Of a stretch of 40,535 nucleotides of DNA, positions 5,205 through 26,285 are shown in pieces. Every line of letters starts with the position of its first letter. Positions within the stretch are counted from its first letter, which is position 1. A program made the position numbers and the translations under genes. The notes under the pieces were generated by a model, which saw nothing but the letters and a program-made list of their open reading frames with translations, had not been told where the DNA came from and searched no databases. The stretch is from a phage. The stretch lies in assembly GCA_032185465.1 (NCBI GenBank), contig GCA_032185465.1_4549.1. The stretch is one strand, 5' to 3'.

Positions 5205-5265
5205 CTTGAATCTCCTCTTTAAGTTAAGACTAAAGTCTATCTTATAGTCATATCTTAGGTCCTAA

Positions 5266-5288
5266 AGTCCCTATAGTGATAGTTTAGT
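5266..5288 (-). promoter_or_regulatory. phage RNAP promoter (phi6.5-like): ACTAAACTATCACTATAGGGACT
   Basis: Full consensus match on minus strand upstream of 4932..5204. Confidence 0.85.
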
Positions 5289-17443: not shown

Positions 17444-20125
17444 TTAAGCGAATGCAAAGTCTGAAGACAAGATGTCTTCGATATTCAGTTTACCTTTCTT
17501 CGGAAGCTCAGGCAACTTGTCGCGCTGACTTTCATGAAGCTGGTATTCAAACTGCTCGTAGAAGTCAAGCAGCACATCGTTATCGCGGTAAGTCTCTACC
17601 ATCGTCTCACGGACGCCACGGAACAGATACTCAGCGTCAGCCGGGATGGTCCCGAAGCTATCGTGAATCACTGCGAATGACATCACGCCATACTTTCGGT
17701 GAGTGTGGACTACAGTCTTGCGGAGGTGGCTACCATCTTGTGAGTGGACGAAGTTCGGGCTAATGCCTGACTCCTGCTTGTGCTTGTCCAGCTCTTTCTT
17801 CGTACCTTTGTTGACCGTAGGTTGAAGGTTGAAGGACCCTAAGAACATCAGGTTCAGACGAGTGGTATCCTTCTTGCGGTATTCCTGCCAGACCGGGAAC
17901 CCATCAGGTGTGACCCAGTGTACCGGAAGGCATGGCTTCAGGATTTCACCAGTCTTCTTGTCCTTCACTTCAGCAGCCAGCAGCTTGGCGGCACCTTGAA
18001 GCCACTTCATCGCGTCAACCGCAGCAACTACTGTCACACTCACAGCTTCCCAAATCATCTTAGCCATGAAGCGAGACGCTTGGCTTGGCTCGGTGAACAT
18101 TGCTCCCTTACCGGAGTCAATCGCTGGCATCACGGTGTCTTCGAACACTTGGTCGGCGAACCCATACTCTTTCGACCCGTAGGCCAGAGTCATGACCGAG
18201 CGCTTAGTGACCGAGCGAGACATACCGAATTGCAGCCACTGACGCGCAAGACTCTTGGTCCCAAGCTTCAGGCGTTCGCTGATTTCCCCAGTCTTCTTGT
18301 CCTCTACGGTCACCAGCTCGTCGTCCGTACCGCTCAGTAATAGCTCTTTCAACTGGTCTGACACACGGTCTGAGACTATACGGTAGATGTCCTGCACCTG
18401 ACCAGACGGCGTTAAGTTCACTGCATGTCCGCCTACGTGGTCCCTCAGCATCGCGCTGAAGTGCTGAATCCCCGAACACGAGCCGTCGAAGGCAATCGGA
18501 AGTGAGCAATTGTAGGTCAAGCCATGGTTCATCACCCCAGAATACTCGAAGCAAGCCGCTAGGAAGCAGAAGGGGCTGTCCATACTCCCCCACCACTCGA
18601 TGCTGTCCATCGGTGATTTGGCTGCTGCCAGAATGTTCTCGTGATTGTCTTCCACCCATTTGATACGCTCCTCAAAGGTTACCTTATCGACACCCGCGCA
18701 GTTGGCGGTGTGGACTTTAAGCCATTTGAAACCATCCGCCCCGATAGGCTTTCCGACCGCCAGAGTCAGTAGACCCTTCTGCATGTCGTTACCCTGAGGG
18801 TTGAACATCGGGACAGCGTAGACACGACCTCGCCAATCCATGTTGTACGGGAACCAGATGGCCTTAAACTGTGAGAACTTGTTGGCCTGTGATACGATGA
18901 AACTCATGGACAATCTGCGTGACTGTCTGGCCTTCTCGCGGCGATAGATACCAGCAGCAGCCTTCTTCCATGCCTTGAGTTCCTCCTCGGTTTCACCAGA
19001 ATAGTCCTCAGGCTTCAGCGGTTCCATCTGAGGGATGTCATCAATAGGCGTGTTGTTCAGCTTCTCGACCATGTTCACCACGTCCAGAACCTTCTTGTTA
19101 ACTTTCCAAGGTGTATTCTGAATGATGTTCACAGCGTCATAGACTTCAGGCATGTATACGTCTTCATAACGTGCTACCGCAGACTTAGACCCTAAGCGAA
19201 TCAATGGTAACGGTCTGCGACCTTTGGCCCAGTACCCACCACCTACGACACCAGTCCACGGCTTAGGTGGAACGACGCAAGGCTGGTAGACTGGAGCGAT
19301 ACCCGCAAGGCTGAATCCTCGTTGTGCCATCTTCTTGACCCAGAAGTCTGACAGGTGGACCATCTCTACGTCAGCCGCTGCATTACCAGCACCGTACCGC
19401 TTAAGCTCGACCAGTTGTGTTGACTGGATGACAATCTCGAGCATCTTGATGCCAACGTGGACAGCCTCTGTAGGACTCCAAGTCCCCCATGCATCTTCCA
19501 GTTGGCCTTGCTCCAGCATGGACGCCTCGACCGCTTGCATGTAGGCTTTCTTGTAGGATGCCCCAGCTCGCTTGTTCAGGTTCTCAGCTATCGCCTTCTT
19601 GAAGTGCTCCTTCTCTTTGTCACGGATGCGACCGAAGCGGATTTCGTCCTCAAGTGTGCGACCTATCGCGGAGGCCATCGGTGTAATCGGTATCCCTTCA
19701 GGCTTGACCAGCTTGGAGAGTATGACCTTCAGTATGATAACCGCAGCGGACTCACAGGAGATGCGCATAGAGCGGTCCTTTACGGCCTTCTCTTCAGTGC
19801 TCAACATGGTGAACGCTACGCTAGGACGCGAGGTTGACAGCTTCCCGTCTAGGCCTTCGTGCCACTCCCTGACGGCTTGCGCAATCTTAGGGACCAGAGT
19901 CTGCATCAAAGGCTTGGCGACCTGATTGTCTGCCAGTTCCCCGCGCTCAGTCTGCCGCTCAAGGTTCTTGATGAAACGTCGCTCGCCTTCTGTATATGCC
20001 TCATGCTCAAGCTGAAGCTGTTTGACTGCAAGGTCTTGCCCGTAGTGGTCAGCCAGCAGGTTAAACGGCTCAATGGCGTTCGACACATCAGAGAAGTCGT
20101 GTTTGTCAATAGAGATGACGCTCAT
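17444..20125 (-). CDS. T7-type single-subunit DNA-directed RNA polymerase, gp1-like
   Basis: 893 aa; near full-length colinearity with T7 RNAP (KARKSRR, WFPYNMDWRGRVYA, LPLAFDGSCSGIQHFSAMLRD, VTKRSVMTLAYGSKEFGF, PNFVHSQDGSHLRKTVV, HDSFGT, C-terminal FAFA). Confidence 0.98.
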   Translation of the reverse strand: MSVISIDKHDFSDVSNAIEPFNLLADHYGQDLAVKQLQLEHEAYTEGERRFIKNLERQTERGELADNQVAKPLMQTLVPKIAQAVREWHEGLDGKLSTSRPSVAFTMLSTEEKAVKDRSMRISCESAAVIILKVILSKLVKPEGIPITPMASAIGRTLEDEIRFGRIRDKEKEHFKKAIAENLNKRAGASYKKAYMQAVEASMLEQGQLEDAWGTWSPTEAVHVGIKMLEIVIQSTQLVELKRYGAGNAAADVEMVHLSDFWVKKMAQRGFSLAGIAPVYQPCVVPPKPWTGVVGGGYWAKGRRPLPLIRLGSKSAVARYEDVYMPEVYDAVNIIQNTPWKVNKKVLDVVNMVEKLNNTPIDDIPQMEPLKPEDYSGETEEELKAWKKAAAGIYRREKARQSRRLSMSFIVSQANKFSQFKAIWFPYNMDWRGRVYAVPMFNPQGNDMQKGLLTLAVGKPIGADGFKWLKVHTANCAGVDKVTFEERIKWVEDNHENILAAAKSPMDSIEWWGSMDSPFCFLAACFEYSGVMNHGLTYNCSLPIAFDGSCSGIQHFSAMLRDHVGGHAVNLTPSGQVQDIYRIVSDRVSDQLKELLLSGTDDELVTVEDKKTGEISERLKLGTKSLARQWLQFGMSRSVTKRSVMTLAYGSKEYGFADQVFEDTVMPAIDSGKGAMFTEPSQASRFMAKMIWEAVSVTVVAAVDAMKWLQGAAKLLAAEVKDKKTGEILKPCLPVHWVTPDGFPVWQEYRKKDTTRLNLMFLGSFNLQPTVNKGTKKELDKHKQESGISPNFVHSQDGSHLRKTVVHTHRKYGVMSFAVIHDSFGTIPADAEYLFRGVRETMVETYRDNDVLLDFYEQFEYQLHESQRDKLPELPKKGKLNIEDILSSDFAFA

Positions 20126-20194
20126 ACTTAAAGTCCTTGTTATTAGTCTTTCACTTAGAGTCTCTTTGGTCTTTCACTTGGAGTCTTAGACCTT

Positions 20195-20217
20195 GAGTCC
20201 TATAGTGATAGTTAAGT
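20195..20217 (-). promoter_or_regulatory. phage RNAP promoter immediately upstream of the RNAP gene: ACTTAACTATCACTATAGGACTC
   Basis: Near-consensus promoter whose +1 lies about 75 nt upstream of the RNAP ATG; the leader carries a direct repeat gtctttcactt(a/g)gagtct. Confidence 0.7.
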
Positions 20218-20222
20218 CAGAA

Positions 20223-20549
20223 TTACTTGCATATCAGCGGGTTAGCGTGGAGATGACTGAAGTCACCATGAGTCGTGTGCTTGATGGTTGACCGTTGGTC
20301 TATCGCCTTCCAGCCTGAGACTAAAAGTTTACCATCGTCAGTGATTGGTCGTCCACCATACACCAGACACATCAGTTCGGACTTATGGCCCTCAGCCCGG
20401 AGTCTTGCTTGCAGTACCCGGTCCCGCTCCTGCTGTTGACGTGCGGAGTGACTTGACGTTCCGTGACGATACCCGGTAGCCAGTAGGCTTAACATTTGCA
20501 TGTCTGCGTCCATAGAGTGTACCAGATTAATCCCGTATGACTTGTTCAT
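20223..20549 (-). CDS. hypothetical early protein, 108 aa
   Basis: ATG-initiated ORF in the gene 0.7 position; no kinase motifs and no recognised homology. Confidence 0.55.
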   Translation of the reverse strand: MNKSYGINLVHSMDADMQMLSLLATGYRHGTSSHSARQQQERDRVLQARLRAEGHKSELMCLVYGGRPITDDGKLLVSGWKAIDQRSTIKHTTHGDFSHLHANPLICK

Positions 20550-20923
20550 TACAGTTTGCTCCCAAGTGTTGCTGTATCCCAGACGTTCGCTAAGTTACGC
20601 ATGAATCGTCCGTTAGGTTGACGTACAGTCCAGCTACCCAGACGTACATATTTGAATTTGTAGACTTTACGCGCTTTGTTGATGTCTCTCACCAGCACGT
20701 AGGCGATAAGTCCATAGCCTATGGCTATCAATAGTGCGATACTCATAGTCATAAGCCCCATAACAGTTGAGTAAGGACCGGTAGTTTGCAGACTAGAGTA
20801 AACATTCCCCACGCTACGAAGCCTGAGATAGTCCAGATGATTGCAGTGCTCATAGTTAACTCCTATCAATGTAAGTGGTAATCTTTGAGGCCACCTATCA
20901 GTCGATGACCTCTCGTCTATCAC
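20549..20923 (-). CDS. hypothetical early protein with one predicted transmembrane segment (start uncertain)
   Basis: Track ORF starts at GTG 20923; internal ATGs at 20761/20752/20746 precede hydrophobic MSIALLIAIGYGLIAYVLV. Stop overlaps the next ATG (TAATG). Confidence 0.45.
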   Translation of the reverse strand: MIDERSSTDRWPQRLPLTLIGVNYEHCNHLDYLRLRSVGNVYSSLQTTGPYSTVMGLMTMSIALLIAIGYGLIAYVLVRDINKARKVYKFKYVRLGSWTVRQPNGRFMRNLANVWDTATLGSKL

Positions 20924-20985
20924 TCAGTACCATCACGTCAGTGTTATGGTCAAGCTATGATTTGGTTCTCTCCTGTTTATTTAGG

Positions 20986-21213
20986 TTACTCGCCGTCTCC
21001 TTCTGTAAGGCTATCGTCTATTAATTCAAATTTACCGTTTGAGTGTTGGATAGCCTCTTGTCCGCAATGGTCGCAAACCACCAGTTTATCGAACCCGTCA
21101 AACTCGTCACCTGCTACGCAAGAAAGTACGAATTTATGATTGGTGCATACTTCTTGCGTTTCACCGAAAATTGCTCGAAAACCTTTGGTTATGGCACCAG
21201 TGATTGTGTTCAT
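20986..21213 (-). CDS. hypothetical early protein, 75 aa, putative zinc ribbon (C-X7-C ... C-X2-C)
   Basis: ATG at 21213, preceded by the duplicated 70-bp leader element; four Cys arranged as a possible zinc ribbon. Confidence 0.55.
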   Translation of the reverse strand: MNTITGAITKGFRAIFGETQEVCTNHKFVLSCVAGDEFDGFDKLVVCDHCGQEAIQHSNGKFELIDDSLTEGDGE

Positions 21214-21218
21214 ATCTT

Positions 21219-21289
21219 CCCTCTCAGTTGTTAATGACTATCAGTCAGGGCCTTCAGATGTAGACTCAAAGACCCTGTAGTTAATCACT
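21219..21289 (-). repeat. 70-bp conserved leader element, copy 2 (putative RNase III hairpin upstream of second early gene)
   Basis: 69/70 identical to 22041-22110; RNA folds with stem CAGGGUCUU/AAGGCCCUG. Confidence 0.6.
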
Positions 21290-21525
21290 ATCGCTAGCAA
21301 GTATCGCGCTTCATCATCTCGTAGCACCCGTCGTAGAACGCTTGTTCGCTGCTATAAGTTATCTGGTGCATTGTTGGTTATCCTCATCGTGTAAGCTGTC
21401 GTGTATACGCTTGCGGCCCTCGTAGACCGCTTTCAGGTGACGCATAGTCGCATCGTGGTTTAACTGCCCGGTCTTGACCATAAGTCGGGCGTTGGTGACG
21501 TGGTGCTGGCATAAACCGTAAGTTA

Positions 21526-22032
21526 TCATCGCTCGCAGTCCTCAGCCGCAGGGTCGAACACTACGTTATCATTGATGTCTTCCACCTTCAGGTGGCGACC
21601 TGCCGCATAGTTAACCTTGGCACATGCAGTAGCAACCTCAAGAGCTACAGCTTGCACAATTATTGCGCCTGTTTTAGCGTCAACTACCCAATATTCATCC
21701 TCTTCGTCTGCCTCTTCATCCTCAAACCAGACTACATCCAAGCCATTAGACACATCGTTATAAAGCGCCTCATAGATGCGAGCTTGTAGGATACGCGTTA
21801 CGTCCTTGGTTTCAGGCATCATCCCAGAGTCTTCGAACTCGTGGTCTATACCATCAGCAGCCATCACCGTAAAAATCTCGTGGTAATAGTGCGGAACTTG
21901 ACCGTCTACGGCCTCATGCAGCGCATCGCTGTAGTCATCATCTTGAGTCAGGTGGTAGTACTGAATACGCTCGATAAATGCCTCAACGGTTGCAGCCAGC
22001 AGCTCATAGTATGCGTTAGCGTTACGTTCCAT
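21526..22032 (-). CDS. ocr: Ocr-like anti-restriction DNA-mimic protein (gp0.3) with about 50-aa C-terminal extension
   Basis: 168 aa; [45 protein letters not shown] colinear with T7 Ocr, acidic stretch follows; first gene after the host-type promoters. Confidence 0.85.
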
Positions 22033-22226: not shown

Positions 22227-22256
22227 ATACTACTTTAAGTCGGTACATCTTGTCAA
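22227..22256 (-). promoter_or_regulatory. host sigma70-type early promoter (T7 A2/A3-like): TTGACA-18-TAGTAT
   Basis: Minus strand TTGACAAGATGTACCGACTTAAAGTAGTATGTACCACAT; the -10/+1 context GTACCACAT matches recalled T7 A3. Confidence 0.55.
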
Positions 22257-22397: not shown

Positions 22398-22554
22398 TAG
22401 GTAATCTTAAATAATATTGATTAAGCTATCGTCGGCCCCATAGTGACTAAGAGGATATAGTCTTTGACTAACATGTTTAAGACCTTAAGTCTATAGCTTT
22501 GTGTCTATTAACTGTGGGTCTATGACCGTAGGTGTTGGTGTCTTATGGTTGATA

Positions 22555-22645
22555 CTGTAGGTTAGTTAGACTGTAGGTTGTAGGACTGTAGGTTGTAGGA
22601 CTGTAGGTTGTAGGACTGTAGGTTGTAGGACTGTAGGTTGTAGGA
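22555..22645. repeat. tandem array: 5 perfect copies of 15-bp unit ctgtaggttgtagga plus one degenerate copy
   Basis: Direct reading of 22555-22645; lies just inside the left genome end, like the short repeats next to the T7 terminal repeat. Confidence 0.9.
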
Positions 22646-22649
22646 CCTA

Positions 22650-22867
22650 TGGTTATACAGATAGAGACTCAGAGACAGACCCATAGCCCCTACCTATCGT
22701 CCTGACCTCCAGCCATAGCCTAGACCTATCGTTGACCTAACGTCTTGACCATCGGTCCAACCTTATGATAGACTGGCTGTGACTGCAAGGAGTAGTAACG
22801 GGTAGGGCCTTTGGTCTTGACTTAAAGAGGGCCTATGGGGGAGACTTGAGGTTATTGAACTGTGAGA
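22650..22867 (-). repeat. candidate genome left terminus and direct terminal repeat (concatemer junction near 22867)
   Basis: Minus strand from 22867 reads TCTCACAGTTCAATAACCTCAAGTCTCCCCCATAGGCCCTCTTTAAG, matching the conserved T7/T3 left-end sequence as I recall it. Repeat length and inner boundary are not determinable here. Confidence 0.4.
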
Positions 22868-23106
22868 TGTGGTCTCAAACTTTTGGTCCAAAACTCATCG
22901 TCACTACTGTAGGCCACAGCTACTGTAGGTCAAGGACCGTAGGTCAGGCGACACTAGGATAGACCAATAAGTAGGATGACCCTAAGTGAGCTTCTATTAA
23001 GGTGTTACCTAAAGTCCTTGACTACAGTAGCTAAGGTCAGTAGAGTGAGTCTTTATCCACGTACTGACCTTAGGTCTTCCGCTCATGAATCGTTACCATG
23101 ATTGCG

Positions 23107-23265
23107 TTAATTACACTGAGACACCAGAGAACATACGAGAGTCTCGACCCACCCGACCCACTTACTTCCAGCAGTAACGCCAGCAGCAAGTAGAACAGCA
23201 GCAAGAAACCTGTATGTAGCTCGATTGGTCGCCAGAGCTTTAAGTACAGCTTTGGTCTTTGCCAT
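23107..23265 (-). CDS. small hydrophobic protein, 52 aa (gene 19.5 position)
   Basis: MAKTKAVLKALATNRATYRFLAAVLLAAGVTAGSKWVGWVETLVCSLVSQCN; ATG with GGAGGT upstream, downstream of the phiOR-like promoter. Below the ORF-track cutoff. Confidence 0.45.
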   Translation of the reverse strand: MAKTKAVLKALATNRATYRFLAAVLLAAGVTAGSKWVGWVETLVCSLVSQCN

Positions 23266-23445
23266 ATGCTACATACCTCCTGTATCTATGGTCGGTGACT
23301 ATCTATATTGGAGGGATTATGATTAATATCACCCTCCTTCCATCGGTGCAAGCCTTAGGTAAGAACTCGGAGTCTGCCTCCTAAGGTCTTGCATAAAGTC
23401 TGCATATGTATATTCACTACAGTAATACTATAAGTAACCGGGGGT

Positions 23446-23468
23446 CTTCCCTATAGTGATAGTTAAGT
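23446..23468 (-). promoter_or_regulatory. phage RNAP promoter near the right genome end (phiOR-like): ACTTAACTATCACTATAGGGAAG
   Basis: Consensus match about 100 bp after the large terminase stop. Confidence 0.8.
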
Positions 23469-23562
23469 CCAAACTCCTTATAAAACAGTAGGTTAGACTG
23501 GTAGTAACTATAGGTTACTAACTGCGTATTCATGCAGCTTTCACCCATAGTTATTCATTCAG

Positions 23563-25329
23563 CTAGTGGAACGTAACGTAGGACCCTAGTCCCAGCTCGT
23601 CGTCCGTATCGTGAGTTACCCGGACCCCATTGTCCCAGAACTCAGTGTGGATGGACTCGAAGCCTTTCCGTGGGTTCTCCATCTGTTCCTCCAGCCACTC
23701 CTCAGTGACTTCACGTTCGCCTTTGTTGGCATCCTTAGCCATAGACTCAACGAAGAACTGCACACCGATAGCCAGCGCATCAAGTCGGTCATCGTGTGCC
23801 AATGCTCCACGTTCACGAGAGATACGTGTCATCTGGTAGAAGAGAGAGTAGATAGGATTACGAACACCATCCTTATCAGAGGCAGACTGGTAATCTTGGA
23901 CGATAGCAGCAGCGTTAACGATAAGTCGGTGAGACCCCATGATAGGCTCCAGAACGTCACAGATGCGGAGTTCCTTCTGACCCTTACTCTTCACTTCAGT
24001 TACAGCAGCAGGATGAATACGGGAAGCTACAGGCTTGAATAGCTCAAGGTACATACCATCACCGAAGTTACCCTCAATGACGTATTCGTTGACCTTCCAC
24101 TTACGACCAATCTTAGCCAAGGCTTCCAGCGTAGAGTCTTCATAGCCACCTCGCATACCGCCAACTTCCATAGCGAAGATGTAGCCGTTTAGCTGGTACA
24201 GTACCGCATAACCAGTTTCATCCTTACCACGACCACTAGGGTCAATGACTAGAATCTTCTGGGTGTATGAGCTGAAGGCAGAACCTACAGTCTGATACGT
24301 GTGGTATGAGTCACCCATGAGTCCAACGTTAGGAACGTCCTCACGCTTGTTCTGAGGGTTAGGAAGCCATTGGTATATCATTGGGCTAGACGCTTGGTCC
24401 AAGTCTGCTACGATAAGGTCACGGAGCTTCAGAGGGTACTTCTCGGCATCACTCAGGTTAGGGTTAAGCATGAACTGTAGAGCGAAGCCAGCTTTGCCAT
24501 AGGACAACTCACGTTCCTTCAGGTCCGTATCATCGAATCGTACTTCATCGGTAGGACGCCAGTAGAAGGACTCAGGGTCCTCTTCCAGCTCTGCCTGAAG
24601 CATAGGAGCCAGACGGTCGCCGTAAGACTGCCAGTCCTTCTTATCACGTGGATAACGAGCAGGCCAGATAGTAGTGGTGTATCCACGGCCTTCCAGCTCA
24701 CGATACAAGGTCATCTCATTCTGAGGAGTACCCAGATAGATGATTGTACCTCCCGGCTTCAGGATAGCGTCGAACTCTTTCACAAGCTCTGACAGACGGT
24801 CTCGTGCGGCCTGAGTCGCTGAGTTGTTCGGAACCTCCACGTCATCAGCAATCAGGATGTCAGCACGACTACCAGTCAGCTGACCAGTGATACCAACGGA
24901 CTTAACCGAAGGTGAGTGGTCTGGCTTAGCTGGCCCAACGTCAAAGCTGATAACAGCATCTCGCTGCCCCTGCTTAGGTTTGAGTTCCTGAAGCTGAGGC
25001 ATGAGGTCGATGATTCGCTTGATGAAGATGGAGTTCGCATCGGCTCGTTCCTTTGAGGCCGACACAATCATGAACTTCAAGTCTGGGTTGTTCCATAGCT
25101 TCCAGACCACAAAGCCACAGGTCAGAAACGACTTGCCAATACCACGGAAAGCCTGAAGGATGAAGCGGCGATTATCACCAGCAGCCAGCTTCTTACACAT
25201 ATCTATCTGGCAGCGGGTTGGAACCGGAAGGCTTAGTGCTTTCCAGAGAACGAAGATGAAGAACACGAAGTCGTCCCTCATCCTTTGGGTCATTTCTGCC
25301 TGTCTTTCAGCAGGTGTTTTCTTAGACAT
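23563..25329 (-). CDS. terminase large subunit, gp19-like
   Basis: 588 aa; near full-length colinearity with T7 gp19 ([116 protein letters not shown]). Confidence 0.98.
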
Positions 25330-26186: not shown

Positions 26187-26244
26187 AGTTGCCCTCCCGG
26201 TTTATCAGATTTCACGTAGAGTTGCCTCCACTAGTTAGTGTTAA

Positions 26245-26285
26245 CCATAAAGGCCACTACATATAGTAATGACCTTGAGTCTAAC
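26245..26285 (-). promoter_or_regulatory. conserved RNA hairpin, putative RNase III site (R18.5 position)
   Basis: Third copy of the aaaggccac...tgaccttgagtct motif, in the 100-bp gap between small terminase and Rz. Confidence 0.5.

Follow-up and report, generated by a model that had tools for sequence, protein, structure and literature searches.

A consensus phage promoter and a constrained 75-nt leader directly before the RNA polymerase gene of a Kayfunavirus genome

A T7 autogene, in which the polymerase transcribes its own gene, is said to have been made by Dubendorff and Studier in 1991. Relocation of gene 1 behind a T7 promoter in engineered T7 (Endy et al., 2000) has been discussed as auto-amplification, and the fitness of such phages was not consistently predicted by the model (PMC3737178). 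Natural T7-like phages with a phage promoter before the RNA polymerase (RNAP) gene have been described in two distant genera. Pseudomonas phage LUZ100 carries a phage-specific promoter, also named phi1, upstream of its RNAP gene; ONT-cappable-seq located the transcript 5' end there, and the authors explicitly proposed positive feedback (PMC10134795). In Vibrio phage phiA318, the promoter phi-A8 lies upstream of the kinase and RNAP genes and was read as autoregulation (PMC4099482). A transcript-mapping study of a Kayfunavirus did not surface in the literature search, which was promoter-directed or very broad.

In T7, T3, K11, BA14 and Kvp1, gene 1 is preceded by an R1 hairpin, and no phage promoter is annotated directly before R1 or directly before gene 1 in these records. 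Curated record annotation was used for the promoters of these other genera because a promoter-core regular expression missed the Kvp1-type promoters. The original prediction had held that T7 has no T7 promoter upstream of gene 1. This was incorrect, as phiOL at nt 405 is one. T3, K11 and BA14 also have phiOL upstream of gene 1, far upstream of the host promoters (curated records); none is annotated in the Kvp1 record. The phiOL of T7 and the promoter described here (phi1) are both phage promoters upstream of gene 1 that point towards it, but phiOL lies about 2.7 kb away, before the host promoters, whereas phi1 is directly in front. PhiOL is usually linked to replication or packaging in T7, and no phiOL-type site was found in the genome analysed here by weight-matrix scan.

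The DNA stretch analysed, hereafter the window (40,535 nt; GCA_032185465.1, contig GCA_032185465.1_4549.1), is a complete T7-like Kayfunavirus genome, circularly permuted and reverse-complemented, since every long open reading frame (ORF) lies on the minus strand and RNAP, ocr, terminase and ligase were confirmed by Pfam. Positions 19000-21500 were matched by 239 phage records (megablast), the best being 98% identical Kayfunavirus phages (K1F-like, Studiervirinae) of E. coli, Salmonella, Citrobacter and Enterobacter. The hits also include Kayfunavirus-type genomes under the names 'Enterococcus phage EFA-1', 'Enterococcus phage IME_EF3' and 'Staphylococcus phage MBBL139'. Since these Gram-positive labels stand on phages more than 94% identical to enterobacterial ones, a wrongly assigned host or contamination is likely. 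In PQ039555.1 (Enterobacter phage vB_Ecl_MII_004), most long genes, among them those for RNAP, DNA polymerase, terminase and the internal core proteins, are annotated as many short fragments (125 features in 39 kb), a pattern typical of uncorrected indel sequencing errors.

Gene 1 (17444..20125, minus strand; ATG at 20123-20125) encodes a single-subunit RNA polymerase of 893 aa (Pfam RNA_pol, E=4e-105, and RPOL_N) that is 95% identical to the K1F RNAP. Its Shine-Dalgarno sequence AAGGA, read from the sequence at 20134..20138 (-), is invariant in all relatives. The preceding early ORF (20223..20549, minus strand; 108 aa, gp0.38-like, no Pfam match) has its stop codon 5 nt ahead of the promoter, which is intergenic. 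Pfam also placed ocr at 21526-22032, the large terminase at 23563-25329 and DNA ligase at 15217-16317, all on the minus strand. The best sigma-70-like promoter, TTGACA-18-TAGTAT at 22227..22256 (-), lies upstream of ocr and is the likely source of early host-RNAP transcripts running into gene 1. A TE-like intrinsic terminator at 15180..15207 (-), 3' of the ligase gene, marks the end of the early unit. The EcoDS1 record has host promoters and TE at the equivalent places, and the window shares its whole curated layout of host promoters, early genes, gene 1, ligase and TE. No terminator-like site was found on the minus strand between the host-type promoter at 22227-22256 and TE at 15180-15207, and none was seen between the phi1 start (+1) at 20200 and the gene 1 start at 20125. 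A cognate promoter thus lies upstream of gene 1 on the same strand with no terminator between them, which is the arrangement of an autogene.

The promoter phi1 (ACTTAACTATCACTATAGGACTC, -17 to +6) was located at 20195..20217 (-) by exact consensus match and weight matrix. The 19-mer ACTTAACTATCACTATAGG was matched at 20199-20217 (-) with 0 mismatches over 19 nt. Nine further minus-strand sites come within 3 mismatches of it, where 100 shuffles gave none, and a search with the 13-mer core gave an 11th promoter site in the window. In a weight matrix of the 11 sites, phi1 scored 34.8 bits, 8th in a range of 28.9-37.8 bits; over the whole window, the best non-promoter site reached 12.6 bits, against at least 28.9 for the 11 promoters, all on the same strand. 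That 12.6-bit site is itself a degenerate second promoter-like copy (CCTAAGATATGACTATAAGATAG, 5237-5259, minus strand) within the leader of a strong promoter with +1 at 5271. The near-consensus promoter originally predicted about 75 nt before the RNAP ATG is therefore an exact 19-nt match, with its +1 placed at 20200. This +1 was set by analogy with the T7 start context TATA|GG, and with transcription taken to start, as there, on the G that follows TATA, the 5' untranslated region would be 75 nt. Read along the minus strand, the order is ...GCAAGTAATTCTG ACTTAACTATCACTATA|GGACTC AAGGTCTA AGACTCCAAGTGAAAGAC CAAAG AGACTCTAAGTGAAAGAC TAATAACAAGGACTTTAAGT ATG. The start GGACTC groups phi1 with the GGAC/GGAT early and middle promoters at 15117, 13815 and 16880, unlike the late promoters at 1463, 5271 and 37555, which have GGGA-type starts. 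T7 class II promoters are of moderate strength and open to inhibition by lysozyme. By this analogy phi1 is expected to belong with the weaker, class-II-like promoters, with moderate strength and lysozyme sensitivity, and its later damping by lysozyme would be likely because the GGACTC start is class-II-like.

The promoter is not new, as it is already annotated in close relatives. EcoDS1 (NC_011042) annotates the homologous site directly before gene 1 as 'promoter phi' (2244-2266), and CR44b (HG818823) as 'predicted promoter' (1814-1836). Both have the same 23-bp promoter, leader and spacing to the RNAP ATG, and are about 96-97% identical to the window there; their records mark the promoter only and leave the leader repeat unannotated. 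The analysis of the leader is what goes past existing annotation. The Sparklingdew paper lists a repeat, CTWAACTATCACTATAGG, where the gene ahead of the polymerase gene ends (PMC13298934). In Escherichia phage PE3-1 (NC_024379.1, 134-156), the same 23 nt are labelled 'host RNAP promoter', which is probably a mislabel because EcoDS1 and CR44b call the homologous site a phage promoter.

A 381-nt query spanning promoter, leader and gene start was covered by 221 phage records, and the leader itself was present in 185; at least 185-221 public genomes keep the promoter. The promoter was found at the same place in K1F, EcoDS1, CR44b and PE3-1, in 20/20 IMG/VR relatives found via the polymerase and in 23/25 IMG/VR contigs found via the start region. 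Across 16 genomes with the same type of leader as the window (type 1, below), nucleotide diversity was 0.007 in the promoter; the adjoining RNAP gene gave 0.012 at first and second codon positions and 0.161 at third ones. Where the polymerase of a relative has a T3-like specificity loop, ACCCTCAC stands before gene 1 in place of CTATCAC. The Enterobacter phages vB_Ecl_MII_004 and EcpYZU01 carry TTAAACCCTCACTATAGG promoters genome-wide and the same type before gene 1. The specificity loop of EcpYZU01 RNAP is T3-like (TRLDLMFLGTFRLQPT, D748/R756 in T7 numbering), and that of the window and K1F is TRLNLMFLGSFNLQPT (N748/N756). The -12 to -7 block CTATCA is thus paired with the N748/N756 loop, and ACCCTC with D748/R756. 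The gene 1 site is under selection as a promoter because this block changes in step with its polymerase, and such co-variation is the strongest point for promoter function. Indirect experimental support comes from T7 RNAP fitted with the K1F loop, which gave 17-fold, orthogonal activation of a K1F-consensus promoter (PMC3458549). Phi1 is almost certainly a functional promoter of the phage RNAP.

The 75-nt leader (20126..20200, minus strand) would form the 5' end of the phi1 gene 1 transcript and also lies within the host-RNAP read-through RNA. Two copies of a 17-nt repeat had been pointed out in it, and they were found as described. The unit AGACTC(C/T)AAGTGAAAGAC occurs at 20169-20186 and 20146-20163 (-), with no other copies in the window, and repeat search extended the pair to 21 nt at 90% identity and a spacing of 23. 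Copy 1 (AGACTCCAAGTGAAAGACCAA, +15 to +35) lies at 20166..20186 (-), and copy 2 (AGACTCTAAGTGAAAGACTAA, +38 to +58) at 20143..20163 (-). A third, degenerate copy (GACTCAAGGTCTAAGACT, 78% identity) at 20182..20199 (-) lies at the transcript 5' end and includes ACTCAAGGTC, a motif common to T7-type RNase III sites. The transcript 5' end AGGACTCAAGGTCTAAG also resembles the ribosome-binding region AGGACTTTAAGTATGAG (repeat search). Apart from a period-15 array at about 22568, no other repeat in the window matches at 17 of 18 positions within 60 nt, and no near-adjacent repeat of such quality arose when the window was simulated 100 times with a Markov model. Tandem Repeats Finder reported no repeat on 20000-20400, because two imperfect copies fall below its score threshold. 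Nowhere else in the genome is GACT as dense as in the leader, which has 5 copies in 78 nt where 0.53 would be expected; it is the sole such 78-nt stretch.

The period-15 array consists of about six tandem 15-bp units GACTGTAGGTTGTAG at 22554-22657 (+ strand coordinates), with the host-type promoter at 22256 on one side and the right-end promoter (+1 at 23451) on the other; ACTGTAGGT motifs related to it occur here and there over 22500-23520. T7-group genomes have an array of short repeats flanking the terminal repeat and concatemer junction, and this is probably the same element. Three further ideas about the gene 1 leader were dropped. Inverted defective promoter copies acting as polymerase decoys were sought on the opposite strand with weight matrices of the binding domain (-17 to -5 and -12 to -5), and the repeats were not among the top background sites. 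Mini-ORFs from GTG in the repeat copies have 8 and 3 codons and no convincing ribosome-binding site, and their frames are lost in other leader types. K1F does not keep the GACTC/GAGTC restriction-type sites of the leader.

The leader is under strong constraint, as judged by comparison among relatives. In the 16 type-1 genomes it has a diversity of 0.014, close to the 0.012 of first and second codon positions in the RNAP gene and far below the 0.161 of third positions. Identity of at least 95% over the leader was found in 170/185 public records (92%), compared with 26% of 239 records when the 2.5 kb around it are taken. As a control, the phi1.1 leader was compared in the same genomes; conservation there is confined to the promoter and RNase III hairpin, and the stretch from these to the ribosome-binding site is free to vary, indels included. 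Four leader types were distinguished among the relatives. All four keep about five A(A/G)GAC motifs, the 5' sequence GGAC(T/C)C..AAG(G)TC and the start region AAGGACTT(T/A)AAGTATG; the exact two-copy repeat is restricted to type 1. The two variable spots of the type-1 repeats have matching positions in the two copies, AGACT-NN-AAGTG (+20/+21 and +43). In type 3, repeat copy 1 is without GTGA, as is the corresponding upstream AAGTGAAAGAC-type element of LET1; the downstream element is kept in both.

Two hairpins were predicted by folding. The local hairpin CUC-AA-GGUCU...AGACC-AAA-GAG (20162..20197, minus strand), whose loop and 3' arm are formed by copy 1, is available to both transcript forms, and the phi1-initiated leader was no more stable than its shuffles (z about 0). 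The extended hairpin (20148..20211, minus strand) is possible only in host-RNAP read-through RNA. Its outer 5' arm is the promoter from -11 to +2 and its outer 3' arm is repeat copy 2, in which AGUGA pairs with UCACU of the promoter core. This hairpin has about 21 pairs with internal loops and a predicted -17.2 kcal/mol (z=-2.1) in the window; the K1F equivalent gave z=-3.0. In type-2 relatives, the arms that correspond to these make up a perfect 11-nt inverted repeat, TATCACTAAAG / CTTTAGTGATA. The A at -2 of the type-2 promoter is off the TATAGG consensus of its own genome, yet completes the 11-nt pairing, and the comparison suggests selection for the hairpin. The promoter-pairing arm is absent in EcpYZU01, and the type-4 leader is without the 11-nt inverted repeat of type 2. 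RNAalifold found 0 compensatory pairs in the leader because the alignment columns are invariant, with both arms nearly unchanged. A helix from the phi1 5' end, proposed by RNAalifold, would mask the ribosome-binding site in one transcript form; this was not supported, as the modelled unpaired probability of -14 to +3 was 0.46-0.57 in both forms across six leader variants. The hairpin, as modelled, is a weak part of the explanation, and by itself it would leave the constraint on all 75 nt unexplained.

Rfam 15 gave 0 matches on 19900-20500 at E ≤ 10. Over the whole window at the gathering score, its only match was a tRNA-like element at 11538-11613 (-), between a promoter +1 at 11664 and the primase/helicase ATG at 11520. 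This element scored 36.7 bits (gathering score 29), has an anticodon-arm region of 21 nt, not 17, and was called tRNA-Thr(CGT) of 79 nt by ARAGORN. About the first 25 nt of it were found downstream of the corresponding promoter in Enterobacter phage BHUENT8, at about 13450. Those reports on relatives that were checked (e.g. Hafnia phage Ca) state that no tRNA was found.

The reading that we consider probable, as a whole, is that phi1 is a working promoter of the phage's own RNAP, that gene 1 is self-amplifying, and that the leader is a conserved functional unit of degenerate A(A/G)GACT-YY-AAG copies, the two good ones being the repeat first noticed. Early in infection, host RNAP would start from the sigma-70-type promoters near 22250 and transcribe ocr, the small early genes and then gene 1. 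Once present, the phage polymerase would also start at 20200 and transcribe gene 1 and what lies downstream of it. This would make gene 1 early and middle at once, its expression self-amplifying and freed from the host polymerase, and phi1 would be the first phage promoter of the genome. In the RNA, copy 1 would close the small hairpin and copy 2 would pair with the promoter core only in host read-through RNA; the two transcript forms would differ in 5' structure because this pairing exists only there. Our best guess for the leader repeat is a structural role, through this pairing of copy 2 with promoter sequence in early read-through RNA; processing by RNase III and binding of a factor are the competing possibilities. 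What the sequences show is which promoter this is, that it is conserved, that it co-varies with polymerase specificity and that the leader is constrained; that transcription starts at 20200, that the feedback operates and that the hairpin has a role are inferences.

It is reasonable to infer, by analogy, that gene 1 is positively autoregulated. The circuit would follow the logic of the T7 autogene and of relocated gene 1, which are engineered whereas the window is natural, and host-RNAP transcription would still trigger it because gene 1 keeps its early position. LUZ100 and phiA318 have promoter sequences unrelated to phi1. The LUZ100 promoter is coupled to a MarR-like repressor and an integrase, both absent in the window, and in phiA318 a kinase gene stands between the promoter and the RNAP gene, unlike here. 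The benefit of phi1 is not self-evident, because T7, T3, K11, BA14 and Kvp1 manage without such a promoter.

Several other readings of the locus were weighed. The leader and the outer arm in the promoter could be the gene 1 RNase III site (the R1 equivalent), at which the mRNA would be cut from the early polycistron and for which both repeat copies would supply 3' hairpin arms. Such a site would be compatible with promoter function, and we consider it unlikely. It would fit the T3 record, where R1 is annotated at exactly the same position, 20 nt before gene 1, and the homologous hairpins at this position in T7, Kvp1 and BA14; T7/T3 R1 and the phi1 leader share the place just before gene 1, and a hairpin is possible in both. 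T3 phi1.1 and phi1.3 are immediately followed by RNase III sites, and the leader begins GACTCAAGGTC, the 5' half of the canonical sites at 16874, 9595 and 26281. The same GACTCAAGGTC stands right after the promoter in T7 phi1.1A/R1.1, at window site 16880 and in the phi1 leader, and the read-through hairpin has its 21 or so pairs with internal loops. The canonical hairpin, however, is ACUCAAGGUC-loop-GGCCUUUAUGAUU; the leader shares the 5' half only, its 3' half GGCCUUUAUGAUU is missing, and its upper stem has 5 pairs rather than about 10. A covariance model was built from 14 T7-group RNase III sites (5 annotated in T3; T7 R1 and R1.1; Kvp1 R1; BA14 R1; 3 from the window; 2 from relatives) and run with filters off. 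It recovered the three canonical window sites at 50-57 bits (9554-9598, 16831-16877 and 26238-26284) and was blank on the leader even at E ≤ 10. Because the model misses the leader while finding the canonical sites, the leader lies outside the canonical family, and a T7-type RNase III site was rejected for it; a non-canonical substrate is possible. The repeat that was suggested as a possible regulatory or processing element is real and under strong constraint, but it fails the covariance-model test for a canonical T7-type RNase III site. The model also reported one untrained candidate site, AUAGACGAGAGGUCAUCG...GGUGGCCUCAAAGAUUACC at 20875-20920 (-) (23.9 bits, E=0.0012). It occupies the 5' end of the ORF at 20549-20923, which suggests that the true start of this ORF is further downstream.

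Alternatively, the repeat units could be tandem sites for a trans-acting factor, a phage early or a host protein, or ribosome standby sites, and would then tune polymerase synthesis, for instance by limiting the self-amplifying loop. This appears distinctly unlikely, even though the whole leader is constrained like non-synonymous positions, unlike the control phi1.1 leader, the variable type-1 spots coincide in the two copies, the A(A/G)GAC motifs persist in all four types despite their divergence, and the units resemble the true ribosome-binding region AAGGACTTTAAGTATG. The loss of GTGA from the upstream element in type 3 and LET1 means that two equivalent sites are not universal, the modelled accessibility of the ribosome-binding region is equal in both transcript forms, and no candidate factor was identified. 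A mainly DNA-level role of phi1 in replication-origin priming or transcription-driven genome entry, rather than in polymerase dosage, is very improbable. The T7 primary origin is a phage promoter with a downstream A+T-rich stretch next to gene 1, the T3 annotation gives the same elements by gene 1, Kayfunaviruses lack the phiOL and phi1.05 that other genera have near the same end, and the leader is A-rich. Its A+T content, however, is only about 62%, and it runs straight into the gene 1 ribosome-binding site, so that any phi1 transcript would encode the polymerase; a promoter upstream of gene 1 would also add little to entry, because gene 1 must enter before the phage polymerase exists. There is likewise little chance that a 23-nt tandem duplication left the direct repeat behind as a neutral trace, which has since travelled with the promoter and ribosome-binding site. 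A simple tandem duplication would account for the 23-nt spacing, leader types 2, 3 and 4 have not kept the exact repeat, and Tandem Repeats Finder makes no call. But leader diversity is 12-fold under that of neighbouring synonymous sites in the same 16 genomes, near-identity over the leader is far commoner than over the surrounding 2.5 kb, and the control leader does tolerate spacer indels.

In a small curated set, T7, T3, K11, BA14 and Kvp1 have the 0.7 kinase and are without phi1; EcoDS1 and the window have phi1 and are without both 0.7 kinase and phiOL. Over six genomes, this pattern of phi1 versus 0.7 kinase and phiOL hints at alternative ways for the phage to take transcription over from its host. 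Synthetic biology uses K1F-type pairs of polymerase and promoter as orthogonal parts, and the window would offer a natural autogene with a strongly constrained leader, which could show how a self-amplifying single-subunit polymerase stays in check. More tentatively, and rather against the odds, the 75-nt leader may act in cis, as a regulatory element not described before, to set how much polymerase this natural autogene makes; it could take the form of an operator for a phage or host factor, or of a 5'-structure switch set by the transcribing polymerase, host or phage. If this is true, the operator or switch would be the brake that a self-amplifying polymerase gene needs.
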